Origin: a virus
Lineage: Duplodnaviria > Caudoviricetes
Direction: 5' to 3' (one strand)
IMG/VR virus record: IMGVR_UViG_3300044472_000066
Span: 1 to 48,530 of that record
Length of the DNA: 48,530 bases
Part shown: one piece after another, positions 8,990 to 42,502 of the stretch
Position numbering within the stretch: the first letter of the stretch is position 1
Layout: each line of letters starts with the position of its first letter
Program-made: the position numbers and the translations under genes
The notes under the pieces: generated by a model
Seen by the model: the letters and a program-made list of their open reading frames with translations, nothing else
Databases searched by the model: none
What the model was told of the DNA's origin: nothing

Positions 8990-9092
8990 AAAAAAACCCT
9001 CCGGCGCCATAAAAGCGCTCGGAGGGCCTTGTTATCCGCCAGGCCGCGGCGGAAATTTGCTCGATTATGGATTATCGCCGCCTGGGGCGCAA
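8990..9092 (-). promoter_or_regulatory. Promoter-leader-terminator module D upstream of the endolysin
   Basis: TTGCGC-17-CATAAT; hairpin TCCGCC-GCGGCCT-GGCGGA; terminator CCCTCCG...CGGAGGG-T7 abutting the ATG. Confidence 0.75.
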
Positions 9093-9104
9093 TCTGATTG
9101 CTGG

Positions 9105-9428
9105 CTAATTGTCGCGGCGCTCTTTTACCAGGAGCGGGAGCTTGAAAAAACCGTCGAGATTACCGGGCGCAGTGACCGTGATCTCCAGATCGAGTAGATC
9201 GCCCACCTCGACATTGACATCGGACTCGACAATGCCGCGATAGAGCCCATTGGACGCCGCGACATAGGAAAGAGTCAGCGGCCAAGTTGCGCCGCCGATT
9301 TCCGAGCCGTCGCTGTTTTGCTTGATCACCGCGGTGACCGTCGCGTTGTTCACGAACTGCTTGGTGACTTCGTTTCTGAGCGAACGCAATTCGAGCAGAG
9401 TATCGTTTTTCCAGTAAAGAGCTTCCAT
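9105..9428 (-). CDS. putative virion accessory protein (Ig-like beta sandwich)
   Basis: Beta-rich 107 aa; WPLTLSYVAASNGLYRG. Confidence 0.6.
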   Translation of the reverse strand: MEALYWKNDTLLELRSLRNEVTKQFVNNATVTAVIKQNSDGSEIGGATWPLTLSYVAASNGLYRGIVESDVNVEVGDLLDLEITVTAPGNLDGFFKLPLLVKERRDN

Positions 9429-9450
9429 AGAATAATCCCCCCCGTTTTTT

Positions 9451-11247
9451 TTAAGCCGCGCGGACGAGCGGCCCCCTTTTACTGCCGGCGCAGGCCGCGA
9501 TAACCGGCGCGCCACCAAGTAGCGGCTCTACCGAGATCGACACAGAGAAAACCGGGCCGATATCGGGCTCGCCACTGAGCACCGGCGCTACCGAGACTGA
9601 CGCGGAGAAGACCGGGCCAATATGCGGCTCGGCGCAGATCGGCCCCTCGCGGTGGGTTTCGACTAGCAAGACAGCCTGTGCCAGGTCGGCTTCGCTTGCT
9701 TGGCCGATGAGCCGGATCTTCGGGGCCCATATAACGGATTGCGCGCTGTCGCTCTCGGAGCATTGGCCGAGAGTCCATTGATGGGACGGGGTGACCGATT
9801 GCGCAGAATCGGACTCGGAGGCTTGGCCGAGCGTTTTGCGTTTCGCGCGCGCGATCGCCTGCGAGAGGTCGCCCTCGGAAGTCTGGCCGAGTATTTTGCG
9901 CTTGGCGCCGGCTACGGCGCCAGCAGAGTCGGTCTGGCTAGCCCGGCCGACGAGATAAAGCCGAGCCGGGCGGATAGTTTGCGCTAGATCAGTCTCGGAA
10001 GATTGGCCGAGAGTCTTTTGTTTGACAGACCTTGCCGGTCGCGCCAGGTCGGTCTCGGAACATTGGCCAAGCGCTTTGTTCTTAAGCGCCGTGATCGACT
10101 GCGCGCTGTCGGACTCGATAGCGCGGTCCACCGCTATGACTTTGTTCCCTGAGGCCGTGACTGCCTGGGCGAGATCGGTCTCGCTCGATTGGCCGAGCGC
10201 TTTGGTCTTGACCCTCGCAATCGACTGGGCGAGATCGGCCTCGGTCGACTGGCCGAGCGCTTTGGTCTTGACTGTCGTGATCGCCTGAGCGAGATCGCTC
10301 TCGGACGTCTGATTGACCAAGCGGCGCTGCGGATTGACGGCAATTGCTTGGGCGAGATCGGTCTCGTTTGGTTGGCCGAGCAATTTGCTCTTGACAGCGG
10401 TGATCGCCTGGGCGAGATCGGTCTCGCTCGATTGGCCGAGCGCTTTCGTCTTTAGCCGCGTGAGCGCTTGGGCGAGATCGGTTTCGGTCGATTGGCCGAG
10501 CGCTTTGGTCTTGACCGGCGTGATCGCCTGCGCGAGATCGGTCTCGGTGGTTTGATTGACCAAGCGCCGCTGCGGATTGGCCGTTACCGCTTGGGCGAGA
10601 TCGGTTTCGGTCGATTGGCCGAGCGCTCTGGTTTTTCGTGCCGTGACCGTTTGTGCCGAGTCAGTCTCAGTCGCCTGCGCCACTGCCACTAAATGCCCGC
10701 CGCGAGAGACAGCTTGCGCTAGATCGCTCTCAGTCGATTGGCCGAGCGTGACCGTCTTTCGCGCGCTGATTGCCTGCGACAGATCGGTTTCGCTCGCTTG
10801 GCCGATCAGCCGGCGCTGCGGATTGACGGCGACTGCCTGCGCGAGATCGGTTTCGCTTGCTTGGCCGAGTGTTTTGGTCTTGAGAGCCGTGAGCGCTTGG
10901 GCGAGATCGGTCTCGCTCAGTTGGCCGACCGTTTTTGTCTTTAGTCGCGTGAGAGCCTGGGCGAGATCGGTCTCGCTCGGTTGGCCGAGCAACTTGCTCT
11001 TGACCGCGGTGATCGCCTGGGCGAGATCGGTCTCGCTCGATTGGCCGAGAGCTCTGGTCTTTCGGGAAGTGATCGCCTGGGCGAGATCTGTCTCGCTCGC
11101 TTGATTGACAAGGCGATTTTTCGGCGCCCATGAGACCGCCTGGGCGAGATCGGTCTCGGTCGTCTGGTCTACCGCGACGCTGGTCGCGGCGGAGGGCTGC
11201 AAGCGAATAAAACTGAAATAGGGCGCTCTCCTGCTCGGGAAACTCAT
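9451..11247 (-). CDS. tandem-repeat fibre-like protein (about 20-aa LGQSSETDLAQAITAVKTKA repeats)
   Basis: Over 20 near-identical repeats in one open frame in the tail accessory region. Confidence 0.8.
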   Translation of the reverse strand: MSFPSRRAPYFSFIRLQPSAATSVAVDQTTETDLAQAVSWAPKNRLVNQASETDLAQAITSRKTRALGQSSETDLAQAITAVKSKLLGQPSETDLAQALTRLKTKTVGQLSETDLAQALTALKTKTLGQASETDLAQAVAVNPQRRLIGQASETDLSQAISARKTVTLGQSTESDLAQAVSRGGHLVAVAQATETDSAQTVTARKTRALGQSTETDLAQAVTANPQRRLVNQTTETDLAQAITPVKTKALGQSTETDLAQALTRLKTKALGQSSETDLAQAITAVKSKLLGQPNETDLAQAIAVNPQRRLVNQTSESDLAQAITTVKTKALGQSTEADLAQSIARVKTKALGQSSETDLAQAVTASGNKVIAVDRAIESDSAQSITALKNKALGQCSETDLARPARSVKQKTLGQSSETDLAQTIRPARLYLVGRASQTDSAGAVAGAKRKILGQTSEGDLSQAIARAKRKTLGQASESDSAQSVTPSHQWTLGQCSESDSAQSVIWAPKIRLIGQASEADLAQAVLLVETHREGPICAEPHIGPVFSASVSVAPVLSGEPDIGPVFSVSISVEPLLGGAPVIAACAGSKRGPLVRAA

Positions 11248-12575
11248 CTAATTTTTTCCGTGAACGAAATTATCCCGGCATTGCCGCGGTCCGCGCGCGA
11301 GTGCAGGAAATTGTTCCATTGTAGGGCCGGAGCATACTGGACAAAAGCGACTGCATAATAAGGCGGTTGAGTGTCGGTCTGGTTATCCACAGTCGGGGTG
11401 GAACTGCCCGAGGTGAGACTCGATGCGCCAGTTGCCGACCAAGAGGGATGGGTATGGGCCGTGGTCGCCGCGTTAGTCGACCCGGCCGTGCGGTTCTCGC
11501 CGGCGCCCGCCGCCGCCGTCACCGTGTGGGTGTGACTTGCAATCGGATGTGTATGTCCCGTAGGCGTATGAGTGTGAGTGAGCGAGCCCGCGGCCGTGCG
11601 AATATCCGAAAGCGTGTTGGCACCTTTGACGAACTGACTGCGTAGATCCGGCGTGTTTTTGCTCCCGTCGCAAAGATTCCACCCATCAGGGATCGCCGCC
11701 AGAGTGCCGATCCAGATCGCAATGATTCCGCGCGGCAGCTCGTCGTTGCCCCGGCCGTTATGGATGAAAGCCTGCTGCAGATAGGGAGGCTCGTTGGCTC
11801 CCGTGCCGGTCGCGTCCGTACTCCCGGTGATCGCCGGCGAGGTAGAACCGATCGTGAGGGTATGCGTGTGCGCTGAGGTCGCCGTGCCCACGTTTGCGCC
11901 CGATATGGAGCCGGCCACCAATCCCGAAGCCGTAGTCGAACTGGTCACGTCCGGATGGCCATGCGCATAGGGCGTGCTGTGAGTGTGACTCGCGAGCGTA
12001 TGGCTGTGGGTCGTCGCTCCGCCCGTGCTACCGCCATCACCGGCTGCCGCCGCTCCTTTGATGAACTTGTTGCGCAGGTCTGGCCGGCCGCCGCCGCCGT
12101 CGGCCAATGCCCATCCGGGAGGCACGTCGATGTTGTCGTTCCATAGCGTGATCGCGGCATTGGGGATGCCTAAAGGAGTTCCGTCCGACTTGATGAAGAT
12201 CACCGTAAAAAAAGGCGGCTCATGATTGATCGCGTCTGTCGTTGGCGTGTCGCCTGCCGTCGCCGTGGTCGGGTTCGTCGTACTGGGGTTGCTACCATGA
12301 GTATGCGTGTCCGCTGGATTCGTAGTCCCGGTGTCGCGCGCTGTGGCGCCGCTGCCCGCCGGAGAGTTGGGCACCGTATGCGTATGCGCCGTGGTGTGCG
12401 TGTGGCTTTGCGAAGTGTGTGTATGGGTCAGGGCCCCACCCGTGCCGCCGGGATCTGCCGCCGCCGCAGCGCCCTTCGGATATTTGGCGTCGAGAGCGGT
12501 CTCGCGCGACCACCCTGAGGGAATGCTCGCCGCCGTCGAAGGCCAGATAATAATGATGTTCGCTGCGATGGCCAA
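11244..12575 (-). CDS. tail fibre with three tail-collar-like modules and HxH metal-binding motifs
   Basis: IPSGW, VPPGWALADG..PDLRNKFIKG, IPDGWNLCDG..PDLRSQFVKG; many HTH/HSH motifs as in T4 gp12/gp37 tips. Confidence 0.8.
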   Translation of the reverse strand: MAIAANIIIIWPSTAASIPSGWSRETALDAKYPKGAAAAADPGGTGGALTHTHTSQSHTHTTAHTHTVPNSPAGSGATARDTGTTNPADTHTHGSNPSTTNPTTATAGDTPTTDAINHEPPFFTVIFIKSDGTPLGIPNAAITLWNDNIDVPPGWALADGGGGRPDLRNKFIKGAAAAGDGGSTGGATTHSHTLASHTHSTPYAHGHPDVTSSTTASGLVAGSISGANVGTATSAHTHTLTIGSTSPAITGSTDATGTGANEPPYLQQAFIHNGRGNDELPRGIIAIWIGTLAAIPDGWNLCDGSKNTPDLRSQFVKGANTLSDIRTAAGSLTHTHTPTGHTHPIASHTHTVTAAAGAGENRTAGSTNAATTAHTHPSWSATGASSLTSGSSTPTVDNQTDTQPPYYAVAFVQYAPALQWNNFLHSRADRGNAGIISFTEKIR

Positions 12576-12579
12576 GGAT

Positions 12580-12777
12580 CTAAGAGAGGCGATTGATCGG
12601 CGGCACAAGCGTCACGGGGACAACTCGGCTTTCTGCTTTTTTACCGTACTCATGGATGATCTGTCGCGCTTCCTCGAGCAGACCGTAGCAAAGGAGGCGG
12701 TCCCGGATCGGCCCCGTGACGTTGACAGTCGAGTCTTCGTTGAGAGTAATCGTCAAAATAACTTTTTCCTGCGCCAT
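12580..12777 (-). CDS. hypothetical protein
   Basis: Compact 65-aa ORF. Confidence 0.55.
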   Translation of the reverse strand: MAQEKVILTITLNEDSTVNVTGPIRDRLLCYGLLEEARQIIHEYGKKAESRVVPVTLVPPINRLS

Positions 12778-12778
12778 T

Positions 12779-13372
12779 TTATTTTTCCTCCCCCTCGATC
12801 GAATATTCGGCAAGGCCAATGTGGCGAATCTCGCGGGAGAGCTCCTCGTCGATAAAAATTTCGAAGCCCGCCTCGCTCGCCTTGCGGCAAAAAAAACGAT
12901 CCTCGCCGACGAGCTTCTCCCCGTCGAACGGCATCGCGAACCACGGCTCGGAGATCTCCTCGAAAACCCGCCTCTCGATCATCATCACCGCGCAGCCGAC
13001 GCTGATCACTCGGCCATTTTGAACGATAGCGGTTTGCTTGCCGCTGCGTTTGTCGACACAATTGGCCGCCACGATCGGCTTGTTGTGCCGGAGCATTTTC
13101 GCGATCAAGTCATAGGGAAATCTCATGTCACTGTCGATGAAAAGCACATAAGAGGCTTTTCTCCGAAGCGCCTCGCGCACGAGCATCGAGCGCTGATTCG
13201 GGATCACAGTGCCCTCGCACGGAATAAAATCAAGCGCCTCGGGATCGGCGAAAAGAGCGAGATAGAAAAGATCGCAAGCAAAACGCAGATGCACGAGATC
13301 ACGCGCCGGGGTGCAGACGGCGATCATTTTAAAATCGTTCTTTTTGAAGATTTGAGATTTGTCATCTTCCAT
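12779..13372 (-). CDS. GT2-like (GT-A fold) glycosyltransferase
   Basis: VCTP, YVLFIDSDM (DxD), VGCAVMMIERRVF, GEDRFFCRKA..GFEIFID..HIG. Confidence 0.75.
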   Translation of the reverse strand: MEDDKSQIFKKNDFKMIAVCTPARDLVHLRFACDLFYLALFADPEALDFIPCEGTVIPNQRSMLVREALRRKASYVLFIDSDMRFPYDLIAKMLRHNKPIVAANCVDKRSGKQTAIVQNGRVISVGCAVMMIERRVFEEISEPWFAMPFDGEKLVGEDRFFCRKASEAGFEIFIDEELSREIRHIGLAEYSIEGEEK

Positions 13373-13380
13373 GCGCCTCG

Positions 13381-13908
13381 CTAGTTGTACGAACTCAGCT
13401 CATAAATCATTCCGGTTAGAGTATTCGATGAGCTCGCCGTGCCCCAGGTCGCGGTGAGCGAAAGCGCAGTATCGGCAGTCAGGTCGCAGGTCGTCGCCGC
13501 GGGCGTCGCGCTCCCGGCCACGCACATGAGCTGCCCCGGCGTGGTCGCTCCCTGCACCATCACGTTGCCGATCAAGAGCAGAGTGCCAGTCGAGCCGTTG
13601 CTTCGCGTTTGTATAACGACATTAACTTCCCAGAGATTATTCGACACACCGCTGCCCGTGGTAAACGTCGGCGATAGGCCAATAATGGTCCCGGCCGCGC
13701 CTCCCCAGCGCACGTGAAACAGAAGCGTCGGCGTGCCAGTGGTCGAGTGCTTGCCGCTTGCGCGCAGGCGCAGCGCGCGACCGTCGGCCATGTAATTGGC
13801 CGGGATCGTCACGTTGGGAAAAACGATCGTTTCGGTGGTCGTATTGGCTATTGCAGTACCGTCGGCAACGGCCCAAGACAAAAGTTCAGTCCAGAATTGT
13901 CTGCTCAT
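13381..13908 (-). CDS. putative virion structural protein (Thr/Ser/Gly-rich beta protein)
   Basis: Composition and position. Confidence 0.6.
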   Translation of the reverse strand: MSRQFWTELLSWAVADGTAIANTTTETIVFPNVTIPANYMADGRALRLRASGKHSTTGTPTLLFHVRWGGAAGTIIGLSPTFTTGSGVSNNLWEVNVVIQTRSNGSTGTLLLIGNVMVQGATTPGQLMCVAGSATPAATTCDLTADTALSLTATWGTASSSNTLTGMIYELSSYN

Positions 13909-13920
13909 TATTCTCTCCCT

Positions 13921-14553
13921 TTACCGAGCTATCCCAGGCGCAAATGGACGCGGGCGATAAGCGCGGTTCGCGGTGATCGGTCCTGGTGGCGAGGTGTGGG
14001 CAGACACGCGCAAATGCGCGATAGCTGACACGTCCGATGCGCCACCGCCCACGCGAAACCGGCAAATAGCCGTGCTAAATGTCTTAGTGACCGCTGCGTT
14101 GCTGCCTGGCCATGCAGCAGCGGTACGCTCGACGCCTGTTGCGTCGAGAAACATCGCCGCCGCACTGGTCGCCGCATTAACCAGCACGCCCAGGGACGTG
14201 GAGGTATCTAACAATTCCATTTTATTAGGTCCGCGAGCATAGCTATAATCGCCGGAGGCGAGGTTAATGTCGTAGTTACCCGCTGACGGCAGGTCCAAGC
14301 GAAAATCAAGCCCCGGTGTCCACGGAGGATCGGCCCCAATCCAGTGTAGTCCCGCCAGTCTCACATCGGGCACGGTGGAACGGTCGCGCCTGTCCCCGCC
14401 CATGTCAGCAAGCGCAGACTCCCACCCGACAGTATTTCCCTGTGCGGTTGTGAACGGATAATCGGCGCCAGCGCTATACTCGCCAGCATCAGGCGACACG
14501 TCGGTAACGAACCCTGCAGTAGCGCGGAAATTTATGCCTTGTGGATAGGCCAT
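13921..14553 (-). CDS. putative carbohydrate-binding virion protein
   Basis: Beta-rich; FRLDLPSAGNYDINLASGD resembles a CBM-like domain. Confidence 0.55.
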   Translation of the reverse strand: MAYPQGINFRATAGFVTDVSPDAGEYSAGADYPFTTAQGNTVGWESALADMGGDRRDRSTVPDVRLAGLHWIGADPPWTPGLDFRLDLPSAGNYDINLASGDYSYARGPNKMELLDTSTSLGVLVNAATSAAAMFLDATGVERTAAAWPGSNAAVTKTFSTAICRFRVGGGASDVSAIAHLRVSAHTSPPGPITANRAYRPRPFAPGIAR

Positions 14554-14843
14554 AGACAAAGAATCTCGCCGGGCGCGGCTTCGAGTAAGGTAAAGGTATG
14601 TTGCTTCCCCATACCGATAAAGATTTTACTTCCCGCCGTAACCTCAAACGATTCCTGGTCAACCTCGCAGCGGAATTTTCCTTGCGTGCAAATCGCCATA
14701 TGGTCGTAACTGTGCGAGTGGAGCGGGACGCACCCACCGACTTCCGTCACTACGTTGGAGCGAAACTGTATCCCTGCTTCCGCCCACATCGAAAAGACGC
14801 GATGATTTTTCAAGTCGCTGTGTTCTTCGATTATTCCGGCCAT
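14532..14843 (-). CDS. cupin-domain protein
   Basis: PLHSHSYDH...GKF...IGMGKQHTF. Confidence 0.8.
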   Translation of the reverse strand: MAGIIEEHSDLKNHRVFSMWAEAGIQFRSNVVTEVGGCVPLHSHSYDHMAICTQGKFRCEVDQESFEVTAGSKIFIGMGKQHTFTLLEAAPGEILCLWPIHKA

Positions 14844-15250
14844 AAAGAATCCGGCAGGTTCACGTCGGCGATCACCACATCGCAAGCTGCAATGATCTCC
14901 GCATAGGTAGTCTTGCTCGCATTCTGCAAAGTGGTTGCCTCGGTTTTGAGGGCGTTGGTAATGTCGGTGATGTCAGAGACCGCAATTCCGATACGCGAAC
15001 AGCTGTTTTGCAGAATCGTGAGCTTGGCTGGCGTGTTGACGATATTCTCGCCCCATTGGATTCGCGTCAGATAGGATGCCGCCGCGTCGTTGACGAACTG
15101 GCGCAGGGTCGCAATGGCCGGTGACTGCGCTGACGCCATTGCCTTGTGAGTATTGGCATTGTTCGCCATGTCTCGCTGAAGCCCCACCACGTTGTTCATA
15201 ATCTGATCGAGCACCCGGTTGGCATGCAGTTTGGTTTGAGGTATAGCCAT
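14831..15250 (-). CDS. hypothetical helical protein
   Basis: 139-aa ORF in the operon. Confidence 0.6.
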   Translation of the reverse strand: MAIPQTKLHANRVLDQIMNNVVGLQRDMANNANTHKAMASAQSPAIATLRQFVNDAAASYLTRIQWGENIVNTPAKLTILQNSCSRIGIAVSDITDITNALKTEATTLQNASKTTYAEIIAACDVVIADVNLPDSLWPE

Positions 15251-15260
15251 CTTTAATTCT

Positions 15261-15830
15261 TCATCTACTCGTGATCACCGCCAGCGATTGCGACCAGGGG
15301 GAAACTCCCGCCGCATTTCCCGCGCGTAGCCGGATCTGGTACTGAGTATTCTTCTTAAGTCCGGTGAATAGGTAAGAGGTTATATTGGAGCCGGTCCGGA
15401 GAAGATTCATCGCGGGCGGCTTCTGTCTTGTGAACTCTATCTCGAAGTACTCCTCATTGCCTGAATTATCATGCCACGAGAGTGAGATGGACGTGTCGCT
15501 CGCAAGCGCGACAATTGTGCTCGGCGCGATCGGCACGGTAGAAAAGGGAATAGTTCCACAGACCGGATCGGTCTTCGCGGACTCGCCGGCGGCGTTGAAG
15601 GCGCTCACCTGATAGCAGAATTGCTGTCCTTCGTTGCCGCTGGCCGAGTCGCTGTAGGTCGTAATATCCGCCCCGATAGTCCCGATCAGAACGCCGTCGC
15701 GATAGATGCGAAATCCGTCTTCGTCGCTCGAGTTGTCTTGCCAGCTCAGCATAAACGTTTTGACCGCGGCTTTTCCATCTGCGGGCAATAGCAAGATGAG
15801 CGCTATGCCGAGTGCAAGAATCGATCTCAA
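15261..15830 (-). CDS. signal-peptide protein with two fibronectin type III domains
   Basis: LSWQDNSSDEDGFRIYR...YQVSAFNAAGES and LSWHDNSGNEEYF...YQIRLRAGNAAGVS; hydrophobic N-terminus. Confidence 0.8.
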   Translation of the reverse strand: MRSILALGIALILLLPADGKAAVKTFMLSWQDNSSDEDGFRIYRDGVLIGTIGADITTYSDSASGNEGQQFCYQVSAFNAAGESAKTDPVCGTIPFSTVPIAPSTIVALASDTSISLSWHDNSGNEEYFEIEFTRQKPPAMNLLRTGSNITSYLFTGLKKNTQYQIRLRAGNAAGVSPWSQSLAVITSR

Positions 15831-15831
15831 A

Positions 15832-16305
15832 TCAGCTCGCCCGATAAAATCCCGCCGTAGCGATCTGCGCCGTAATGTCGCTGCCGTCGGGCGTGACGAC
15901 GAAGTCGTGCTGAGTGAGCGGCACTATGCCCGAATCGGTGCCGCCCGTGCTATCGCTGTCGTAGCCGACGACGAAATCATTAAAGCCATCGCCGGCAGCG
16001 ACTGCGATCCAAGTTTGGTCAGGCATGTCGAGGTCGACCCTGTCGTTAGTATCGTCAGGCGCGAAAGCGACGATGTCGGAATCGGTCAAAGTTTTTCGCG
16101 CATAGCCGGAATTTGTGACCTCGTTCGTCGTGCCCGAAACCAGGGCGGAAAAGTCGTCCTTATCCTTCAACACCGCATCTGACTCGATGCCGGAGGTCGC
16201 CAGGATCAAAATCACGAGCACGGAGTTGGCCGGGTCATTGGTATCAACGCGATTGTAGAGCTCCGCCACTCGGCCAAGTGCAATATTGAAAACAAAATTA
16301 GCCAT
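15832..16305 (-). CDS. conserved phage structural protein
   Basis: MANFVFNIALGR...GYARKTL...TPDGSDITAQ pattern typical of minor virion proteins. Confidence 0.7.
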   Translation of the reverse strand: MANFVFNIALGRVAELYNRVDTNDPANSVLVILILATSGIESDAVLKDKDDFSALVSGTTNEVTNSGYARKTLTDSDIVAFAPDDTNDRVDLDMPDQTWIAVAAGDGFNDFVVGYDSDSTGGTDSGIVPLTQHDFVVTPDGSDITAQIATAGFYRAS

Positions 16306-17786: not shown

Positions 17787-18063
17787 CAGATTTCCGTTCG
17801 TGCCATCGCGCGCCGAATTTGAGCGTTTGCAGGCGCGCGAGCATCGCCATGCAGCATAGCGTCAGTCGATGCTTCGCTTCTTCTTCGCCGCAATCGCCAA
17901 AATCGAAATTGACCGTGTGCAAATCGCCGCTAAAACGGCACTGAATAAGGCCGGAGAATTTCGCCCAATGAACCCTGGGCTCCTCGCCGCCGGTGGAGCG
18001 AATCTGGCGCTCGCAAAATCGCGTGAACTCCTCGCGCTCCTTAGCTTCCATAATTTTTACCAA
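17779..18063 (-). CDS. hypothetical protein
   Basis: Coupled ORF. Confidence 0.5.
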   Translation of the reverse strand: MVKIMEAKEREEFTRFCERQIRSTGGEEPRVHWAKFSGLIQCRFSGDLHTVNFDFGDCGEEEAKHRLTLCCMAMLARLQTLKFGARWHERKSDA

Positions 18064-18283
18064 AACTCCTTGGATCGATCTTCAATAACCGAGCTGCGGC
18101 GCTTTTATTGCCCTTGGTTTTGATCAGTGCCTTTTCGATGAGGCCGCGGCGGAAATCCTCCCGCGCTGTGATCAGATTGGGCAATACGGCCAAGGATTCG
18201 CTCTCGATTTGACGCCAATGTTCCTCGGCAAGATCATCGAGCACGGCGATTTTTCCCCGCAGGGCGATCATTTCGTAAATCAT
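18041..18283 (-). CDS. Fis-family HTH protein
   Basis: LIEKALIKTKGNKSAAARLLKI matches the Fis/HTH_8 signature. Confidence 0.8.
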   Translation of the reverse strand: MIYEMIALRGKIAVLDDLAEEHWRQIESESLAVLPNLITAREDFRRGLIEKALIKTKGNKSAAARLLKIDPRSFGKNYGS

Positions 18284-18302: not shown

Positions 18303-18462
18303 AAAAAAAAGCCAGGGCGGCTTCTTTAAACGAAGCGGCCCCGGCCTCTTTCCGTCGACCGTCGACGAGCATCTCGCGTGTCGAGACTATGTCAAACCGC
18401 GCATTTCAAACCACTACTCCAAAAACGAAGATGATTATCCGCGAACCCTCCGATTCACGCAA
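18303..18462 (-). promoter_or_regulatory. Promoter-leader-terminator module C
   Basis: TTGCGT-17-GATAAT; hairpin CGTCG-ACGGT-CGACG; terminator GCCGGGGC...GCCCTGGC-T8. Confidence 0.7.
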
Positions 18463-29051: not shown

Positions 29052-29052
29052 T

Positions 29053-35020: not shown

Positions 35021-35449
35021 TTAAGAGATTTCGACAGCCGTCGGTAACCCTGTAACCTTGATCGACCAGTTGAGAAAGACCGGCGCGTCGAAATTAAGCG
35101 GCATGTCGAATTTACTCACACGACCTTCAAATTCCCATCCGTCGATGGTGTTGCTCAGCAGAGTGCGCCATAGGAGCTTAGTCTGCGCGATAAAGTCGAG
35201 ATAAATTTGTTTATGCATCTCGATGTCGGGATGGTAGACGAGTACGAGCGCGACCTCGTCGCCCGCCTTAAATGTGTCAATGTTTTCCTCGAAGCTCCCA
35301 GGGCTGTCATGGTTGGTCGCATCCGCATAGTTCTGGGTCGCGGACGGCGCCGGGATCACGCGCAGTTGCGGCACGGCGATGAACAGAAGGGTATCGGGAT
35401 TTCTCCGGTAGAGCTGGGCGCCTTTGCCTCGCAGTATTTGACTGGCCAT
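35021..35449 (-). CDS. tail tube (major tail) protein
   Basis: DATNHDSPGSFEENI...FEGRV...IKVTGLPT. Confidence 0.8.
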   Translation of the reverse strand: MASQILRGKGAQLYRRNPDTLLFIAVPQLRVIPAPSATQNYADATNHDSPGSFEENIDTFKAGDEVALVLVYHPDIEMHKQIYLDFIAQTKLLWRTLLSNTIDGWEFEGRVSKFDMPLNFDAPVFLNWSIKVTGLPTAVEIS

Positions 35450-35464
35450 TGTTTTTTCTCTCCT

Positions 35465-35902
35465 TTACTCCATGTTTTGATGACTCGGATCGGACTCCTC
35501 GGTTGCATAACGGGTGGAAAACATAAGATCGGCGCCGGCGCGCGGCAGCTCGGCATCGACGTAAAGATATTTCACGCCGGTTTTGTGCGTGTATTCGGCC
35601 AGGCCGCTGCGGGTCGTATCTGCCTTGACGGCAGCCTCGACGTCGGCCAGCGCGTCCTCAAGCTCATAAAGCGCGTGCTGGTCTTCTTCGTCGACCAAAA
35701 CCCGCACGATAAAATCAAGCACGTTGAGCTCGCTCGCTGCCGGATAAAGTTCAGTGTCTTCATTGGCCGGAAAAAATCCGGCGATCGGGCGCGCGAAGTT
35801 GAAATGCTCGGGCCGTCCGGTCACGATGGTCTCAAGCGATGGAGCAGTTTTCAGCGCTTCCTCGATATCCATCAAAATCAGCTTGCGGATCGAATCGGCC
35901 AT
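35465..35902 (-). CDS. tail terminator / completion protein
   Basis: SIRKLIL...LADVEAAV..D.TRSGLA; synteny. Confidence 0.65.
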   Translation of the reverse strand: MADSIRKLILMDIEEALKTAPSLETIVTGRPEHFNFARPIAGFFPANEDTELYPAASELNVLDFIVRVLVDEEDQHALYELEDALADVEAAVKADTTRSGLAEYTHKTGVKYLYVDAELPRAGADLMFSTRYATEESDPSHQNME

Positions 35903-35909
35903 TTAGCAA

Positions 35910-36470
35910 TTAGCCAGCAAACTTAAGCGCCCTTGCAATCTCCTGCGGCACTTTTTCTTTCAAAAATTCCTGAATCTTGCTCCTGATTTTCCTGCGCGAA
36001 AAAACCAAAGCGACCGAAGGTCCGAAAAGTTCGCGCACCGGCAATCTTTTGTCTCTGATACGCTGGAATACGCCGATATGGCCGCTCTGCATGCGCGCGA
36101 TAAACGATCCGGGAATCAATTTGCTTTGCGGCCCATAGGTCACGCCGCCAGGAGGCCGGCGCCGTGTGACGCTTCGCGGCTTGGGAGCGATCTCATAGAT
36201 CGGTACGCGCTCCTTCTTCGAGGAAAGCGCCGTGAGCCTGGCCTCGGGCTTGGCGGCGCTCGCTTTTGAGAGTGAGAGATTTCGCCGGATCGATTTTTGC
36301 GCCGTGGCCCCGATGTCTTTTTGAATTTCCCTGACCGAAAGCGTGAACGCGCCCTGCGCCGCTCGATTGATGCCCGCGGCGGCAGCGCGTGGTGCGCGCT
36401 TGAGAATCTTCTCTTCGAGCTTGCGCTCTAGCCCGGCCTGGTCTGTGGAAACTTTTAAAGTCAACGCCAT
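35910..36470 (-). CDS. minor tail protein Z-like
   Basis: RAAAAGINRAA...SFIARMQSGHIGVFQR...LPVRELFGPSV. Confidence 0.8.
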   Translation of the reverse strand: MALTLKVSTDQAGLERKLEEKILKRAPRAAAAGINRAAQGAFTLSVREIQKDIGATAQKSIRRNLSLSKASAAKPEARLTALSSKKERVPIYEIAPKPRSVTRRRPPGGVTYGPQSKLIPGSFIARMQSGHIGVFQRIRDKRLPVRELFGPSVALVFSRRKIRSKIQEFLKEKVPQEIARALKFAG

Positions 36471-36480
36471 GGCTTTGTTC

Positions 36481-37431
36481 CTAGCAGTAATTCCTCGGAA
36501 TCCACTGATAATCGTCTGTCGCGCCATGGCGGTTGAAGTTAAGCTCCCAGGGTGGCTTGACGCGCACGTCGGCCCCGCAGGCATGGCAGCGCGGGCGCTC
36601 CGTCGACGCGAAGTGCCAGGGTTTCTCCCCGCCATAGAAAAAAATGATCCGCGCATCCTCTGGCGGCTTTGCCTTGTAGCGCCGGTCGCGGCAGATATTG
36701 GGCCAGCCGTAAACGCCATCCTCGCGAGTCCAACCGCTTTCGCCGTCGCCGAGAGAATGACGCATCCAGGCCTGGTCGGTGCCGAGATATCCATCGGCGG
36801 CACGCACGCTCGCGAGGCCTTTGAAATCTTCCCAGACTTTTTTCCGCGCGCCGGCCTTCATCATCCACATCGAGGCTTGATACACATTGACCTCGTCCTG
36901 GGGAATCTGCTCCAAGTGGCGCCGGTAAATCAGAAAATCCTCGTCGCGATCGAAAAGCGGATCGAGATTTTTTAAAACCACGCAGTCGAGATCGATCGAA
37001 ACAAAGCGCGGCACGATATTAAGCCCTTCGTGACCTTCGTGTCCTTCGTGGTGAAGAAGTATTTTCCCGAATTCCTCGCTGAATGCCTTCAGCCGCACAT
37101 AGCAGTTGGGCCTGTTCTCGGGCCAGGCGGGATTTCGGAGCTCGCGCCAATCGGACCAGAGGGGAACTGGCTCGATCAACGGATCGAAGTCCGCGCCCGG
37201 CGCCGAGCTGTCCCAGTCCGTGAGGAGGCACAGGCGGTGGGGCAGAGTCAGGTGTCGATGGATCATCCGTGCCCAGATATTTGCATGCTCCGGTGTATAG
37301 CGCGCCTTGCCGGTGGAACTTTTCCAAAGCCAGCCGACGACGGTCAACCGCTGGGTCTGCGTTCGATTCTCAGACGAAGAAAAGCCCAGATAGCCGGACT
37401 CGCGATCCGATATTTCAACCTGGGCTTCCAT
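36481..37431 (-). CDS. glycosyltransferase-like protein (GT-A/GT8-like), paralog of 45105-45836
   Basis: WLWK..YTPEHAN..RHL..LLTD, SIDLDCVV (DxD), GTDQAW, FYGGEKPW. Confidence 0.75.
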   Translation of the reverse strand: MEAQVEISDRESGYLGFSSSENRTQTQRLTVVGWLWKSSTGKARYTPEHANIWARMIHRHLTLPHRLCLLTDWDSSAPGADFDPLIEPVPLWSDWRELRNPAWPENRPNCYVRLKAFSEEFGKILLHHEGHEGHEGLNIVPRFVSIDLDCVVLKNLDPLFDRDEDFLIYRRHLEQIPQDEVNVYQASMWMMKAGARKKVWEDFKGLASVRAADGYLGTDQAWMRHSLGDGESGWTREDGVYGWPNICRDRRYKAKPPEDARIIFFYGGEKPWHFASTERPRCHACGADVRVKPPWELNFNRHGATDDYQWIPRNYC

Positions 37432-37457
37432 CCGATTTCGATCAGCGATCTAAAAGA

Positions 37458-38492
37458 TTAAGATGCGGCGCCGTTGTCGAGCTGGACGACCGCGCGCGGC
37501 TTGGTGCATAAGCACAGCGGGTTCATCTGCGCCTCGATATCGATGCCCTTGCCCATCGGCTTCATCTCGCTGCGCACTTCGATCGGCAGGCCGTCGGCAC
37601 TGGGAATCTGATTGACGCGGTCGACATAGTCCGAGGGACCGTTGCGCTGGATAAAAAGGCCCATAACGCCGGTCGGGAAGAGGTAGGCCTTGTCGCCTTC
37701 GACAAAGCTCACGCCGCCGACCGAGCCGCGATAGTTTTCCCAGACCACGCCACCGAACGCGATCGCGCCATAGGCGAGATCGGGCTCGCGCAAAAGCCGC
37801 GCGTCGGCACTGTTTAGATATTTGTCCTCGACCCGGTCGTGGCCGACGAACTGGTCGAAGAACGTATCGCCGCAGAGCGCGCGCCAGCCAGTGAAGGCGG
37901 CGTTGCCGAGGGCAGTCAATGAGAGGCGCTGGGCCTGGCGGATCTTTGCGAGAATATCGGTGGTCGAGCTGCCCAGTGCCATATTGAGAGTCTGCTGGGC
38001 GACACCGAACTCGGTGAACAGATTATAAATCGTGGTGATGCCGTCGGCATCGAGGATTTCGCCCTTGATCGCGCCGACCCGATGATATTCGAGAGTGGCT
38101 TGGAGCTTGAGCTGCATCTGCTGGAGCTTTTTGTCGCGCATGGACTCGACGGTGAGCCGGGCATTCTGAGGGGCCATACCGTTGGCATAGGCCCGCACGC
38201 TCTGGATCTCTTCGGCGCTGATGGCGTCCATCACCGGAATGTGCGGCACGATGAACGGCCGTGCCTTGCGGGCGTCGGTCGTGTTTGCCGCCGGTACGCC
38301 ACCGAAGGGCGCCGTCGGCACGAGCTTCAGAGTTTGATACTCTTCCTCGATCACGACCTTGCGATCGGGGATGCCCTGGACATCGAAAATCCCGAGCTGT
38401 CCTACCCGGCCGGGAACATAATCGATGTGACTCACGGCATCGGTCAGACTCGCCATCGTGAAAATATCTTTGAATACGTCGATAATATCCAT
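37458..38492 (-). CDS. major capsid protein (lambda E family)
   Basis: FTMASLTDAV...PHIP..D.I.AEEIQ...TLEYHRVGAIKG...EAQMNPLCLCTKP. Confidence 0.9.
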   Translation of the reverse strand: MDIIDVFKDIFTMASLTDAVSHIDYVPGRVGQLGIFDVQGIPDRKVVIEEEYQTLKLVPTAPFGGVPAANTTDARKARPFIVPHIPVMDAISAEEIQSVRAYANGMAPQNARLTVESMRDKKLQQMQLKLQATLEYHRVGAIKGEILDADGITTIYNLFTEFGVAQQTLNMALGSSTTDILAKIRQAQRLSLTALGNAAFTGWRALCGDTFFDQFVGHDRVEDKYLNSADARLLREPDLAYGAIAFGGVVWENYRGSVGGVSFVEGDKAYLFPTGVMGLFIQRNGPSDYVDRVNQIPSADGLPIEVRSEMKPMGKGIDIEAQMNPLCLCTKPRAVVQLDNGAAS

Positions 38493-38569
38493 TCTCTTCT
38501 CCTTATTTTTTGGTTTCGCGTCTTTCGTCCAGCGTCTAGCGTTTGGCGCCAGACCCCAGACGCTAAACC

Positions 38570-38941
38570 CTAGACGGCGGTCCTCAGTTTGATTCCGAGC
38601 GCGGCAAGATCGGTCTTGCCGTTGGTGATGTCGGTGGCGTCATTGGTCGAGGCCCAGACTAAAAGATCCGGATTCAGCTCGGCGTCTTTGACGATGATCA
38701 CGCCGTCCTTGTCGCCGCCGCTGGCATCGACATCCTCTCCGACGAGCACTCCGGCCGCCGCCTCGCTGCCGTCGTTGTTGTCGTCGTCATAGGCTTTGTA
38801 CTTGCCGGTCGACGTGATCTTGCCGACTACGGTGCCGAAGGCGAGATCCTGGCCGCTGACGATAGTCACATTCTCGCGCGATTGATGGCCGGGCAGCTCG
38901 GATAAAATCAGTCCGACCTTGACCTGTTCGGTTACGCTCAT
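38570..38941 (-). CDS. head decoration protein (gpD-like)
   Basis: SRENVTIVSGQDLAFGTVVGKIT...DGSEAAAGVL. Confidence 0.85.
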   Translation of the reverse strand: MSVTEQVKVGLILSELPGHQSRENVTIVSGQDLAFGTVVGKITSTGKYKAYDDDNNDGSEAAAGVLVGEDVDASGGDKDGVIIVKDAELNPDLLVWASTNDATDITNGKTDLAALGIKLRTAV

Positions 38942-40380
38942 GATTTCCTCCCGTGAAATTTTTCTTCTCTTTCCCGATAGCGCTTATTGATGGCGCGCGG
39001 ATCGAAGGGGACTGTCTCCCTTCCAACCGTGGACTGTGCCCTTTGATCCGGTCCTAGCTTGTTATCGATCTCGGGCCCCTGGCGCGCGATCAGCACGTCA
39101 AAAAGATCGTTGGCCACTTCGCCCACGCTCATGCCCGCCTTGATGTAGCCGTTGGCGCGCTCCGAGAGCTTGGCGGCGGCGCACCGGGCGCGTATCTTGT
39201 CGGCATCTGCGAGCTTGGCTCGCACGTCGTCGACGCCGAGTCCGCTGTCTAAAAAACTAGCCGCGGCATCGGCGATGCCGGCCTTTGCGCAGAGCGAGAC
39301 TATCTCTTTGGCAGATTTCTCGGCTTGGGCGCGGATCTCATGCGGGGACGGTCCTGCTTCCCGTGCCGAAGGCGCCGGGACTGTCCCCATTTCCTCCGAG
39401 TCTTTTATTTCCTCTTTGTCAGGGTCATTTTCCTCTTCGACCATTAGCAGGGAGTCCAGCGGCGCCGGAAGATTTTTAAAGCGCGACAAAGTCGCATTCG
39501 CCGCGATCTTGACAGCGCTCGTGACCTCGTCTGCCAGCCCGGCGGCGAGCGCCTCGGCGGCGGTGAACCAAGTATCCTCATTCATCCATTTTCTGATCTG
39601 GCTTGCGTCCTGGCCGGTCTTGGCGACGTAGGACGAGATCAGCCCGGCGGCGATCTTGTCGAGCGCGTCGGCCATATCGCGCATATCGGCGGCGTCCCCG
39701 ATCACCAACGCGAGCGGGTCATGGACAAATAAATACGTGTTCTCCGGCATAACCACGCGGTCGCCTGCCATGGCGATCACCGACGCGATGGACGCGGCGA
39801 CGCCATAGACGACGACGGTGAGGTTGGCGGGGTGGCGCTTGAGGGCATTATAAATAGCGACGCCATCAAACACTTCGCCGCCGTAGGAATTGAGGCGCAG
39901 CGTGATCGACTTGGCGTCGGGATATTTTTTTAGATCGGTGATGAAGTCCTTGGCGGTGACTCCCCAGAAGCCGATCTCATCGAAGATATCGATCTCGATC
40001 TCGCCGCCGTTTTGCGCTTTGATCGAGTACCAGGTTTTTTTATTGAGCATTTTTTTACCCTCTGTCAGTCCGAGCGCCTGGCGATGGGCTTGGAGATGAT
40101 CGATCACTTCCTGGCTGGCCTTTTGCCCAGTGCGCCCGCCGTTGGCGGCGGACCAGGCGGCGTCGAGACCGCCGCGATGCAGATACATGTCGCCGGAAGT
40201 GAAAACCCCCATGTCGTTTAGGTCGCCGCCGTTCTCCACCCAGTGATGCGGATAGCCCCAGCTAGATTTCTGGTCCGCCTCGCCTTGATCGGCGAAGGCA
40301 TTACGCGGCAGCTTGGTCTTGTCGACCGCGCTCCACTCAGGTTCGCTGTCGGCGAGCTTTGAATTGTGGGTCAGTGCCAT
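38938..40380 (-). CDS. ClpP-like head maturation protease/scaffold with an extra N-terminal domain
   Basis: IFDEIGFWG, LNSYGGEVFDG, AASIAS (Ser), VHDP (His), TWFTAAEA..GLAD. Confidence 0.9.
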   Translation of the reverse strand: MALTHNSKLADSEPEWSAVDKTKLPRNAFADQGEADQKSSWGYPHHWVENGGDLNDMGVFTSGDMYLHRGGLDAAWSAANGGRTGQKASQEVIDHLQAHRQALGLTEGKKMLNKKTWYSIKAQNGGEIEIDIFDEIGFWGVTAKDFITDLKKYPDAKSITLRLNSYGGEVFDGVAIYNALKRHPANLTVVVYGVAASIASVIAMAGDRVVMPENTYLFVHDPLALVIGDAADMRDMADALDKIAAGLISSYVAKTGQDASQIRKWMNEDTWFTAAEALAAGLADEVTSAVKIAANATLSRFKNLPAPLDSLLMVEEENDPDKEEIKDSEEMGTVPAPSAREAGPSPHEIRAQAEKSAKEIVSLCAKAGIADAAASFLDSGLGVDDVRAKLADADKIRARCAAAKLSERANGYIKAGMSVGEVANDLFDVLIARQGPEIDNKLGPDQRAQSTVGRETVPFDPRAINKRYREREEKFHGRKS

Positions 40381-40386
40381 TCGGTC

Positions 40387-40493
40387 AAAAAAAAAGCCGC
40401 GCCATCTTTTCGATGGGCGGCCTCTTGGGCTCCGGCCGGCGGAGCAAAGTCTCTTTAGGTCGCGATTATGCGCGATTGTTCCGCGCCGGTCAA
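40387..40493 (-). promoter_or_regulatory. Promoter-leader-terminator module B upstream of the head genes
   Basis: TTGACC-17-CATAAT; hairpin GCTCCG-CCGGC-CGGAGC; terminator GCCGCCCATC-GAAAA-GATGGCGCGGC-T9. Confidence 0.8.
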
Positions 40494-40548
40494 TCAGTAT
40501 CAATCAGTAACAGGCGGCATCGGCCCGGCGAAAGGGGATCTGGCGCGC

Positions 40549-42105
40549 TTATCCTTGCGCGGGCGGCCCGGCCGGAGCGGCGCCGGCGCCGACGGGATTG
40601 GTCCCGCCGTAATCTTCCGTGAGCCCCATCTGCTGCGCGCGCTGGTCATCTTCCTGGCGCTCCTGGTCAATCTCGCGGATGTCTTCGCCCGCTTCGCTTG
40701 CCACGCGCTTTCGACTCGTGAGTCCGGCCTTCAGCCGGGCGAGATCGGCGTTGGCATCCTGGAGCTCGTGCAGGTACGGCCAGCCCTCTGGATGGCAAGC
40801 GACCTTTAAATAGCTCTCGCGCTGATTTTCGTAGTCGGCTGGCTCGGGCAGTGCCCCAGAGACGATCGCCATATCGATAAAGTCTCGCCATATCGGATAG
40901 CAGACTTGGGGGACGGTCAATTGCCAGCGATCTTGCTCTAAAATGCGGTGATACTCAGCGAGCACGACCCTGAGCGTCCGGTCGTTGAGCTTGGAGAAAT
41001 CGCCGCTGAGAAACTCATAGGGCACATCCTGGCCGGCGCCGATGCCGAGAAGCTGCTGGCGGATAAAATCCGCATAGCCCTGGCCGGTCGTGTCGCCTTC
41101 GAACATGGTCACGTCTTCACCGGGCAATAGCTGGATCATCGAGCCGCCCTCCACGTTTTGGATGCCGACGCCCGAGGCGTCTTTCTCCAAGGTCTCGCCC
41201 GTGAAGGGATCGAACTTGTAGTCATTCTCATCGAAGGCGGCGCGCCGCAACACGCCGCTGTAGGCCGCCTTATTTTTTTTGCGCAAAAGCTCCGCGTCAT
41301 CATACTCGTCGAACTCGCGCGCCTTGATCATCGCCTGGACAATCGCCGGCAGGCCGCGGATCTGGCCGGGCCGCAGGATCGCATAGTGGTGCAGGATCTC
41401 GGAGGCGGGGATTGGCACGATGTCGAGATTAACGAACTGGCTGGTGAAAAAGAAGTCATCGGGGTGGCTCCGATACATGAAATAAGCCGTGCGCTGCCCG
41501 ATCGCGTTGAACTCAATACCCGCCTTTACAACCCGGCCGGGAAAACTGGTCGTCGCTGCCCCTTGATTGTGTGGGCAAAACTCTGGCTCAAGCAACTGGT
41601 ACTGCAAGGGCACGGGCAGGCCACTGTCGGGCCGTCGCACGCGGCGGCGAAGAAAAATCTCGCCCGCGGCCCGCCGCGTCCTGACGACCTGAGCGAGCAT
41701 GCCATTGAAATCCATCATGCCGTCGGCGTCGAAATACTGAACCTGTCTTTCCCAGAGATCGTCGGCCTGCTGATTAAATGCCTGATCGGGGCTTTGCGCC
41801 TTGAACGTGATACCGCAGCCGATCTCGTTGGCGACCCAGCTATTGACCCCGCGTGCAATCCAAGGATTATTGCGCACCAGCTCGCGCGCGCGCTGGCGGA
41901 GCAGAGTCAGATCGCCGAGCATGGCGCTGTTCGGCCCAAGCGAGCCAGGTTGCCAGAGTCTGAGCCGCCGTCCAGCCTTCGCCGCCTCATAGGCTGCTCT
42001 AGCGCGAAGGGCGCCGGCCGGTTTCCGATTGCCGATTTTAGATTTCCGATTTGTCAAAGGCGCCTTCGGCTGTTTTCGTTTGTTCCTCGCGCGTGGCTTT
42101 TTCAT
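40549..42105 (-). CDS. portal protein, lambda family
   Basis: LRQRARELVRNNP, GIEFNAIGQRTAY, RPGQIRGLP, YEFLSGDFS. Confidence 0.93.
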   Translation of the reverse strand: MKKPRARNKRKQPKAPLTNRKSKIGNRKPAGALRARAAYEAAKAGRRLRLWQPGSLGPNSAMLGDLTLLRQRARELVRNNPWIARGVNSWVANEIGCGITFKAQSPDQAFNQQADDLWERQVQYFDADGMMDFNGMLAQVVRTRRAAGEIFLRRRVRRPDSGLPVPLQYQLLEPEFCPHNQGAATTSFPGRVVKAGIEFNAIGQRTAYFMYRSHPDDFFFTSQFVNLDIVPIPASEILHHYAILRPGQIRGLPAIVQAMIKAREFDEYDDAELLRKKNKAAYSGVLRRAAFDENDYKFDPFTGETLEKDASGVGIQNVEGGSMIQLLPGEDVTMFEGDTTGQGYADFIRQQLLGIGAGQDVPYEFLSGDFSKLNDRTLRVVLAEYHRILEQDRWQLTVPQVCYPIWRDFIDMAIVSGALPEPADYENQRESYLKVACHPEGWPYLHELQDANADLARLKAGLTSRKRVASEAGEDIREIDQERQEDDQRAQQMGLTEDYGGTNPVGAGAAPAGPPAQG

Positions 42106-42111
42106 TTTAGT

Positions 42112-42324
42112 TTAAAGTCCCTTGGAATATCGCGAGCGCAGCAGCCGCGGCCGGTTCTGCACATTGGCATTGATCGTATCGAGCAGCTTTTGAAGATCCC
42201 CGACATCGGCGATCTGATAGGTCTCCGAGCGATCGGCCGTGGTGACCGAGGTCACCCGCTTGCCCTCCGCGATGTCGCGGATAGCGTCCAAAATAATCTC
42301 GCGGTCAGCGGTAGTCCAAGGCAT
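42112..42324 (-). CDS. head-tail joining protein gpW-like
   Basis: AIRDIAEGKRVTSV..DRSETY...DLQKL; immediately before the portal. Confidence 0.8.
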   Translation of the reverse strand: MPWTTADREIILDAIRDIAEGKRVTSVTTADRSETYQIADVGDLQKLLDTINANVQNRPRLLRSRYSKGL

Positions 42325-42372
42325 GGCTTCGGTCGATTCGCTCCTTATTGCAAATGGCAGATCACAAATTTC

Positions 42373-42502
42373 AAAAAAAAGGCCTCTTTCTTTGGCATCT
42401 GAGATCTGAGATCTGAGATGCTGCGAAAGTGGCCTCATTTCCCGCAGGCCTCGCGGGTCAATGTTTGACGACGATTATCGGTTAAGCAAGAGAAACGCGC
42501 AA
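42373..42502 (-). promoter_or_regulatory. Promoter-leader-terminator module A upstream of gpW/portal
   Basis: TTGCGC-17-GATAAT; hairpin CCCGC-GAGGCCT-GCGGG; terminator GGCCACTTTC...GAAAGAGGCC-T8 with (ATCTCAG)3 in the loop. Confidence 0.7.

Follow-up and report, generated by a model that had tools for sequence, protein, structure and literature searches.

The 48,530-nucleotide (nt) viral DNA analyzed here (Duplodnaviria; Caudoviricetes; IMG/VR record IMGVR_UViG_3300044472_000066, positions 1 to 48,530; "the window" throughout) carries on its minus strand four modules, A to D, in each of which a promoter-like site is followed by a small hairpin and then by a terminator-like hairpin, just ahead of late genes. 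Judged by sequence comparison, this four-module feature is real and conserved, and the modules are very probably cis-acting attenuators of the late operons behind them. In each, the loop of the small hairpin can pair with the base of the terminator, which likely makes a pseudoknot. A protein family represented in the window by a 69-amino-acid (aa) open reading frame (ORF) accompanies the leader in related phages and is a candidate for the factor that acts on it.

Four modules with a predicted pseudoknot

All four elements that a preliminary description had reported on the minus strand are present (Table 1). The string TTG-N20-NATAAT occurs exactly four times when both strands of the window are scanned, once per module. 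Between 11 and 65 nt beyond this promoter-like site stands a 5-bp hairpin with a 7-nt loop, followed by a 5–6-nt A-rich linker, a GC-rich hairpin and a tract of seven to nine U residues (8, 9, 8 and 7 nt in A to D). The next start codon comes 48, 6, 19 and 0 nt after the U-tract, respectively, and because this gap leaves no room for a separate promoter, the downstream genes must, going by the sequence, be transcribed through the terminator-like hairpin. The layout is that of the distributed attenuation or antitermination system proposed earlier, and the same gaps of 0–48 nt make a family of free small RNAs, also proposed, less likely than cis-acting leaders. With starts assumed ~7 nt past the −10 box, terminated RNAs of ~65–125 nt are predicted. 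At the endolysin gene and at the 69-aa ORF, the start codon lies 0–2 nt past the U-tract (8989-9010 and 637-640); the sole GGAGG of module D, a ribosome-site candidate, falls within the terminator 3′ arm (8989-9010), so that the switch may act there on translation too.

The string TTG-N20-SATAATC was found four times in the window, against a mean of 0.17 (maximum 1) when the sequence was dinucleotide-shuffled 60 times. A descriptor of the pseudoknot (5-bp stem, 2-nt G-N loop, 5-bp stem, 4–7-nt linker) matched seven times, and the four matches followed by a tract of at least six U residues were exactly A to D; the 60 shuffles gave a mean of 2.0 matches, none with a U-tract. Both descriptors were derived from A to D, which inflates the significance of these contrasts, and the independent support comes from relatives. 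A built-in consensus scan recovered only the B promoter; all four terminators escaped it, being long, bulged hairpins that exceed the stem and loop sizes it allows.

The loops are best read as 7 nt closed by a C-G pair: GAGGCCT in A, GCCGGCC in B, GACGGTC in C and GCGGCCT in D. Their last five bases can pair with the five that open the terminator 5′ arm, leaving two loop bases spare. The second helix (P2) would thus be GGCCT/AGGCC in A and D, CGGCC/GGCCG in B and CGGTC/GGCCG in C. Our reading of this complementarity is an H-type pseudoknot geometry, which would exclude the base of the terminator.

Relatives were collected by portal-based, pattern and protein-profile searches. The leader was found in nine further lineages, with three copies each in G001 and G003 and one each in G002, G004, G005, G006, G419, G430 and the L075/76/77/107/124 clade, giving 17 distinct copies in ten lineages, all of which have a copy before the protease gene. 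In G000 to G003, 11 of the 12 TTG-N20-NATAAT sites run into a module; the twelfth is antisense within a portal gene. The preliminary description had named conservation of the first hairpin (P1) as a check, and the inner four pairs of P1 are kept in 64 of 64 cases over 16 copies with nine different stem sequences, its closing pair being C-G in 16 of 16. It had also suggested that the loop pairs with the terminator base, an idea that the comparison bears out: P2 core pairs are kept in 68 of 68 cases across the 17 copies. Twelve of these have the core GGCC/GGCC, two GCCC/GGGC, one GGCT/AGCC and two a G-U pair, and double compensatory changes occurred three times, in G003 and G419 (both GCCC/GGGC) and in G004 (GGCT/AGCC). 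The self-complementarity of GGCC that had been thought relevant is not required, as the two GCCC/GGGC copies are non-palindromic. When loops were dealt among the 17 copies in fixed register, the pairing was better than expected by chance for the core (p = 0.0011) and for six positions (p = 0.008), and without G419 the values were 0.008 and 0.016. MAFFT alignments of the leaders put the stems out of register, so pairs were counted by script on hand-set registers in place of a covariance model. The first loop and the linker differ among copies in both sequence and length (4–11 nt for the linker), and G003 has three different loops within one phage. We regard the pseudoknot as likely real on this comparative basis.

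A strict descriptor, which missed one of the three G001 copies, found none in 15 distant portal loci and none in four sister-clade records. In viral contigs, 63 loci fitted the promoter-anchored patterns, but no more than five of them (three phages) had the element, the remainder being chance matches; a third pattern returned four loci, two of them genuine (one phage). In 123 genomes of the probable host's order (see below), the core pattern matched at about the rate of a reversed control, and 0 of 31 matches in 30 fetched loci, of ~200 matches listed, had both pseudoknot and terminator; this tally takes in four unpublished genomes (G399, G347, G420 and G357), used for no other claim. Class- and phylum-wide genome samples added nothing (1/401 each), and the sequencing runs listed included no RNA holder. 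Rfam gave no gathering-level match in the window and only a tRNA in seven related loci, so the already described family that the preliminary description allowed for was not found there; E-value searches gave best values of 0.09–2.1, every one far under the gathering score. We found no description of the pseudoknot leader in open-licence PMC and bioRxiv text, older subscription literature being outside the scope of that search.

Table 1. Features of the window, with sister-clade leaders for comparison (positions refer to the window unless a record is named)
Feature	Position	Strand	Details
Module A promoter-like site	42474..42502	−	−35 TTGCGC, 17 bp, −10 GATAAT; same place in G001, G003
Module A predicted pseudoknot	42431..42457	−	P1 42457-42453/42445-42441, loop 42452-42446, linker 42440-42436, P2 3′ strand 42435-42431
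Module A terminator-like hairpin + U8	42373..42436	−	before gpW (start 42318) and portal
Module B promoter-like site	40465..40493	−	−35 TTGACC, 17 bp, −10 CATAAT
Module B predicted pseudoknot	40418..40445	−	P1 40445-40441/40433-40429, loop 40440-40434, linker 40428-40423, P2 3′ strand 40422-40418
Module B terminator-like hairpin + U9	40387..40422	−	head protease in-frame ATG (40380) 6 nt on
Module C promoter-like site	18434..18462	−	−35 TTGCGT, 17 bp, −10 GATAAT
Module C predicted pseudoknot	18342..18368	−	P1 18368-18364/18356-18352, loop 18363-18357, P2 3′ strand 18346-18342; one G-U in P2
Module C terminator-like hairpin + U8	18303..18346	−	before Fis-like HTH_8 gene (18041-18283), then small and tail-accessory genes
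Module D promoter-like site	9064..9092	−	−35 TTGCGC, 17 bp, −10 CATAAT
Module D predicted pseudoknot	9025..9052	−	P1 9052-9048/9040-9036, loop 9047-9041, linker 9035-9030, P2 3′ strand 9029-9025
Module D terminator-like hairpin + U7	8990..9029	−	endolysin in-frame ATG (8989) directly after
69-aa ORF, candidate trans-acting factor	428..637	−	family without catalogued match; modelled helix-helix-beta-hairpin
Extended −10-like site (716-708), then short terminator-like hairpin + U9	640..716	−	ahead of 69-aa ORF; no pseudoknot
Tyrosine integrase	781..1944	−	tRNA-3′-end-like stretch 862-887 (+) within integrase 3′ end
Sister-clade leaders	G409:C18:4782 and 6830 (−); L078 1396 and 3472; L085 8224		GACG-loop hairpin

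A protein family linked to the leader

The 69-aa ORF had been proposed as a candidate factor, and its distribution agrees with that role: the family is present in 8 of the 10 leader-bearing lineages, the other two (G001 and G002) being fragments. The G001 record, without a match, is without the whole terminase–integrase region, and that of G002 ends ~50 bp ahead of the promoter. In six lineages (G004, G005, G006, G419, G430 and the L075 clade), the gene stands directly ahead of the promoter–leader–protease unit, with a 1.3-kb insert between the two in L124; in the window and G003, it stands ahead of the terminase region. Among 492 window ORFs of at least 35 aa, only this one was matched in seven of nine leader-bearing records and in none of three other-type records. 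G005 was picked by the RNA pattern and then proved to carry the gene. Conversely, G419 was picked by the protein profile alone and has, downstream of the gene, a promoter-like site, a hairpin, a complementary terminator base, nine U residues and the protease gene. These two cases tie RNA and protein to each other without selection on the other part. The other new match of the profile search, G387, was dropped as partial and antisense to another reading frame.

The Fis-like ORF, the other candidate of the preliminary description, fared poorly: it lies behind leader C, it has a homolog only in G001 of 12 relatives, and the complete, leader-bearing G004 has none. A 61-aa zinc-ribbon ORF (7975-8160), considered as a Com-like factor, was likewise set aside, having no homolog in the 12 relatives. 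The earlier statement that the window has no recognisable Q, Ogr or Mor/C gene held when 72 ORFs were compared with PHROGs and 30 small or regulatory ORFs with Pfam; a very remote member is possible.

The family comprises 63 matches in 1.84 billion representatives, of which 58 are short proteins and five, long and repetitive, were left out of the alignment as likely false. No credible match was found in Pfam, NCBIfam or the PDB (PDB sequence search, none below E 0.07), including PF17362 (ConAn1) and, in Pfam and NCBIfam, the CAT and PRD domains. One of 61 members matched a PHROG of unknown function, and a CsrA match (E 0.035, 1 of 55) was treated as noise. An AlphaFold2 model from 17 sequences (pLDDT 87.6) has a helix-helix-beta-hairpin fold. 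Foldseek found no match to this small monomer model in the PDB or BFVD at E ≤ 0.001, the best VIA-align result had Z 4.3 and rmsd 8.3 over 61 aligned residues, and the ESM Atlas gave no usable match. The model may resemble DUF2292 in its helix plus beta-hairpin; Pfam DUF2292 (PF10055) matched none of 55 representatives at E ≤ 0.5 and none of seven members at E ≤ 1, and no DUF2292 sequences were found for comparison in 61 host-order genomes. The one member searched against GenBank phages had no match there, and viral contigs yielded no further record with the window-like subfamily. Positions R11, K25-R28, K38, R48 and K54 are recurrently basic, and the protein may bind RNA. Overall, we consider the family a likely factor of the pseudoknot leader. 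In two cases, a family member and a close integrase homolog have longest contigs of equal size (P0141/P0001, 7,657 bases; P0166/P0062, 53,594 bases), which hints at further instances of the gene lying next to the integrase.

In a sister clade (G409, L078 and L085), the spot of the 69-aa family between portal and protease is taken by an HTH_17 gene (PF12728; ORF L073:3465-3668). The leaders of this clade, before gpW and the protease, consist of a GACG-loop hairpin with the motif GACGGGCGG, a second hairpin and a terminator; in L085 the motif GACGGGCGG can pair with the terminator 5′ arm. Rfam had no match in L073, L078 or L085, and neither the 69-aa family nor the pseudoknot leader was found on the 48.3-kb prophage contig of G409. 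On the portal tree the three records make up a single clade nested among the leader-bearing phages, and on the protease tree they again group as one; hence the sequences indicate that gene and leader were replaced together, in a single event. The HTH_17 gene and its GACG-loop leader are a candidate second antitermination system.

Proposed switch and rival explanations

The sequence itself provides, in order, a sigma70-type site, a hairpin with an invariant C-G closing pair, an A-rich linker, a GC-rich hairpin with a U-tract and a start codon 0–48 nt on. From the comparison of copies, we suppose that the loop pairs with the first 4–6 bases of the terminator 5′ arm, a helix that could form before the terminator 3′ arm is made. 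Unaided, the terminator would displace the pseudoknot. In the minimum-energy folds from nearest-neighbour calculations, every base of the P2 3′ strand (4–6 per copy) was paired within the terminator in 16 of 16 copies, and likewise in G419. With an assumed pseudoknot loop cost of 6–9.6 kcal/mol, the terminator state was lower by 1.5–16 kcal/mol in 14 of 16 copies; the two exceptions, module D and one G003 copy, were near energetic balance. Because these rough energies favour the terminator, termination would be the default. Gene neighbourhood and co-occurrence point to the 69-aa family as the trans factor, which would bind and hold the pseudoknot so that RNA polymerase reads through. That the pseudoknot is the read-through fold seems probable to us. 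The preliminary description had offered protein binding to the hairpin and loop–terminator pairing as alternatives; the two are best joined, with the protein likely stabilizing the pseudoknot.

Timing may come from the position of the gene. In the window, it closes the early run, coming after cro, the replication genes and the integrase on the same strand and just past the stretch 862-887 (+), which is the place that Q has in lambda; a short terminator-like hairpin of its own precedes it. The stretch 862-887 resembles a tRNA 3′ end and is likely the attP core, and integration would then change the integrase C-terminus. With the likely attP core at this spot, only excision to a circle would bring the 69-aa ORF in behind the early genes; early transcription of that circle could turn the gene on, so that its place at the end of the cro–replication–integrase run would time the switch after induction and excision. 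The region upstream of the gene had been described as a fifth, simpler element (640-718); its terminator-like hairpin and an extended −10-like site are there, but it has no pseudoknot hairpin and is not a copy of the module. G003 has a promoter-like site and a terminator ahead of its homolog too. In single-leader relatives, a promoter-like site lies ~7–10 nt ahead of the gpW or portal ATG (L070 ~9740, L072 ~9820, L075 ~820, G430:C21 ~12770), which suggests leaderless transcripts.

The whole model, namely default termination, a pseudoknot stabilized by the 69-aa protein for read-through, and an activating direction, is in our judgement somewhat better than an even bet from the sequences in hand, and several points count against it. 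P2 pairing was not significant in a free-register permutation of 16 copies (p = 0.24) or for the outer fifth pair alone (p = 0.34); the register of the permutations was set by hand, and the copies are related and hence not independent samples. The core is the palindromic GGCC/GGCC in 12 of 17 copies, P2 has only 4 bp in six of 17, and the G005 copy has no first loop. The loop penalty behind the energies is our own assumption, and module D is near balance. On the protein side, G001 has three leaders and no match to the family (in a record without the terminase–integrase region), the protein is weakly basic, with a net charge of mostly 0 to +3, and matches no known RNA-binding fold, and the loss of gene and leader in the HTH_17 clade is one event only. 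Finally, the 69-aa gene of single-leader relatives lies behind the gpW/portal promoter-like site without an attenuator; the model does not account for its silence in a lysogen, which keeps alive the rival of reversed sign discussed next.

In that rival, the pseudoknot alone permits read-through, which the 69-aa protein or an antisense RNA would block, as a brake serving lysogeny or feedback. In six lineages the gene sits beside gpW/portal, and early or constant expression is possible there because the promoter-like site ahead of it has no attenuator; two copies (module D and one of G003) lie near energetic balance, and GC-rich pseudoknots can lock a riboswitch on (PMC11077080). We nevertheless find it rather improbable: the terminator state is favoured in 14 of 16 copies, the window gene has a terminator-like hairpin of its own ahead of it, as a maintenance repressor would not, and one antisense RNA could not cover the three different loops of G003. 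It is also unlikely that the 69-aa protein antiterminates through RNA polymerase, with the hairpin or nearby DNA as a loading site in the style of N/nut, conAn, Q, AlpA or GafZ and the loop–terminator complementarity secondary. A processive factor would not need an adjacent hairpin for each terminator, and loop and terminator base changed jointly three times, whereas the invariant C-G closing pair and the mostly conserved GGCC loop do resemble a sequence-read site and the gene follows the early genes, like Q. The order of gene and then RNA resembles conAn1–conAn2 (PMC8191782). However, the spacers share no 5–7-mer beyond the hexamers and the promoter–hairpin distance varies from 11 to 65 nt, whereas the Q, AlpA and GafZ elements sit between −35 and −10 (PMC11150451).

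We give little credence to a borrowed riboswitch, in which the pseudoknot would sense a host metabolite, ion or host protein and the 69-aa gene would be a passenger of the cassette. Its architecture is that of ligand-gated pseudoknot/terminator switches (PMC11077080), but Rfam gave only sub-threshold matches, the variable first loop and linker (4–11 nt) argue against a small-molecule ligand, host-order genomes matched like the reversed control with 0 of 31 full elements in 30 fetched loci, and the gene is still linked when moved off the leader (G000 and G003). A very improbable explanation is that the hairpins are ordinary terminators ending the genes upstream, or that the promoters make small free RNAs, the late genes being fed by leaky read-through. 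A, B, C and D do each lie downstream of a same-strand gene, and AGGCC...GGCCT is a common terminator base in host genomes; however, the 0, 6, 19 and 48 nt between U-tract and start are too short for a promoter, the extra hairpin shows covariation and is kept at orthologous positions, the strict descriptor found nothing in 15 distant portal loci and four other-type records, and the link with the 69-aa family would be unexplained.

We know of no late-gene regulator recognised in most temperate phages outside the lambdoid, P2 and Mu groups. One phage group now gains a candidate late switch made of a 25–30-nt RNA and a 69-aa protein, neither in a catalogued family, for which nature has already supplied compensatory mutants. 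If the proposed switch is true, a protein-controlled pseudoknot joins the known antitermination mechanisms as an undescribed way to time virus assembly, and ~58 orphan protein clusters gain a function; it may also be of use as a compact, orthogonal switch of transcription. In the sister clade, the cassette swap suggests that an HTH_17 protein serves a second system. We put at evens the broader proposal of a protein-gated pseudoknot attenuator, a minimal riboswitch-like RNA with the new family as its ligand, that stands before one to four late operons as a swappable gene-plus-leader cassette, the excisionase-like HTH_17 protein and GACG-loop hairpin doing the same job in the sister clade. Late-gene timing in these phages would then be modular, with small RNA-binding proteins and their matching leaders plugged in as units.

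Genome context and relation to known systems

The window is a single contig with a terminal repeat of 254 bp (one mismatch), which makes it most likely the complete circular genome, ~48.3 kb, of a temperate phage. By PHROGs and Pfam, it encodes terminase, gpW, portal, protease, decoration, major head and tail proteins and endolysin, as well as Cro/CI-like HTH proteins, an O-like replication protein and an integrase, with almost the entire gene set on the minus strand. No close cultured phage was found (terminase identity ≤54%). Among named genome records, a related portal occurs only in a Candidatus Binatia metagenome-assembled genome (MAG), and 3 of 123 genomes of the order of this MAG have a portal of related type; the host is therefore probably a member of Binatia, with Candidatus Binatia prophages as the nearest host-linked relatives on sequence grounds. 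In G001, a module follows the tail-fibre block, as module C does in the window.

A strong terminator-like hairpin with seven U residues and no pseudoknot lies at the end of the cro-like gene (6834-6882, −), and a similar sequence follows a U-tract of G001. Early transcription would have to pass this hairpin, and no N-like gene was recognised in the window. Glycosyltransferase (GT-D, GT2) and methyltransferase-like genes (42868-45836 and 36481-37431) form a cluster between terminase and portal that is kept in most relatives and possibly serves virion glycosylation; G003 has an additional pseudoknot leader at its head. The head protease (39900-40380) has an N-terminal extension of ~105 aa ahead of the protease domain, which most relatives lack. 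Just upstream of promoter A, within a 67-aa ORF, are short repeat units like GGCCTGGCAGGGCAAGGC (42520-42590, −). In G003, a tRNA-Thr(CGT) gene (L001 1797-1871) lies between the 69-aa homolog and the small terminase gene.

Among known systems, lambda pR′-tR′/Q, Pseudomonas AlpA and Caulobacter GafZ likewise place a promoter, a short leader and a terminator before virion or lysis genes, the terminator being opened there by a phage protein. Q, AlpA and GafZ modify RNA polymerase after loading at a DNA element that lies between −35 and −10 (PMC11150451). In contrast, the window has four separate promoter–leader units and no detected Q-like protein, and what is conserved in it is an RNA structure that overlaps each terminator. 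A simple word search found no 5–7-mer common to at least three of the four spacers besides the hexamers, and the spacers of G001 and G003 differ too. In type III toxin–antitoxin systems, tandem pseudoknot repeats precede a ToxN/TenpN/CptN nuclease; the window instead has one pseudoknot per leader, with gpW, protease, HTH_8 and endolysin genes downstream.

Mobile-element antitermination with an RNA part is also known from conAn and HK022 put, and conAn shares the order of a small gene and then its RNA element. The conAn2 element of pLS20 is ~260–600 bp and processive, and put appears to act alone (PMC8191782). The window element, by contrast, is ~25–30 nt and forms with its own terminator a unit of <130 nt, and its protein has no PF17362 match. 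In the fluoride riboswitch, the pseudoknot forms first and overlaps the terminator 5′ arm, and the terminator disrupts it unless it is stabilized (PMC11077080). The predicted pseudoknot helix of the window leaders overlaps the terminator 5′ arm as in fluoride and ZTP riboswitches (16 of 16 copies, and likewise G419). It differs from them in having no Rfam match, a minimal two-stem pseudoknot, variable loops, phage late genes downstream and a co-inherited protein instead of a known ligand. BglG, SacY and LicT, which have CAT and PRD domains, act non-processively by holding a small RNA structure (RAT) that is exclusive with the adjacent terminator. The window differs from these in its phage operons, in a candidate protein without a CAT or PRD match and in a predicted pseudoknot in place of a bulged hairpin. 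It would be like them in that a local RNA structure, with a candidate protein on it, is predicted to be mutually exclusive with the terminator.

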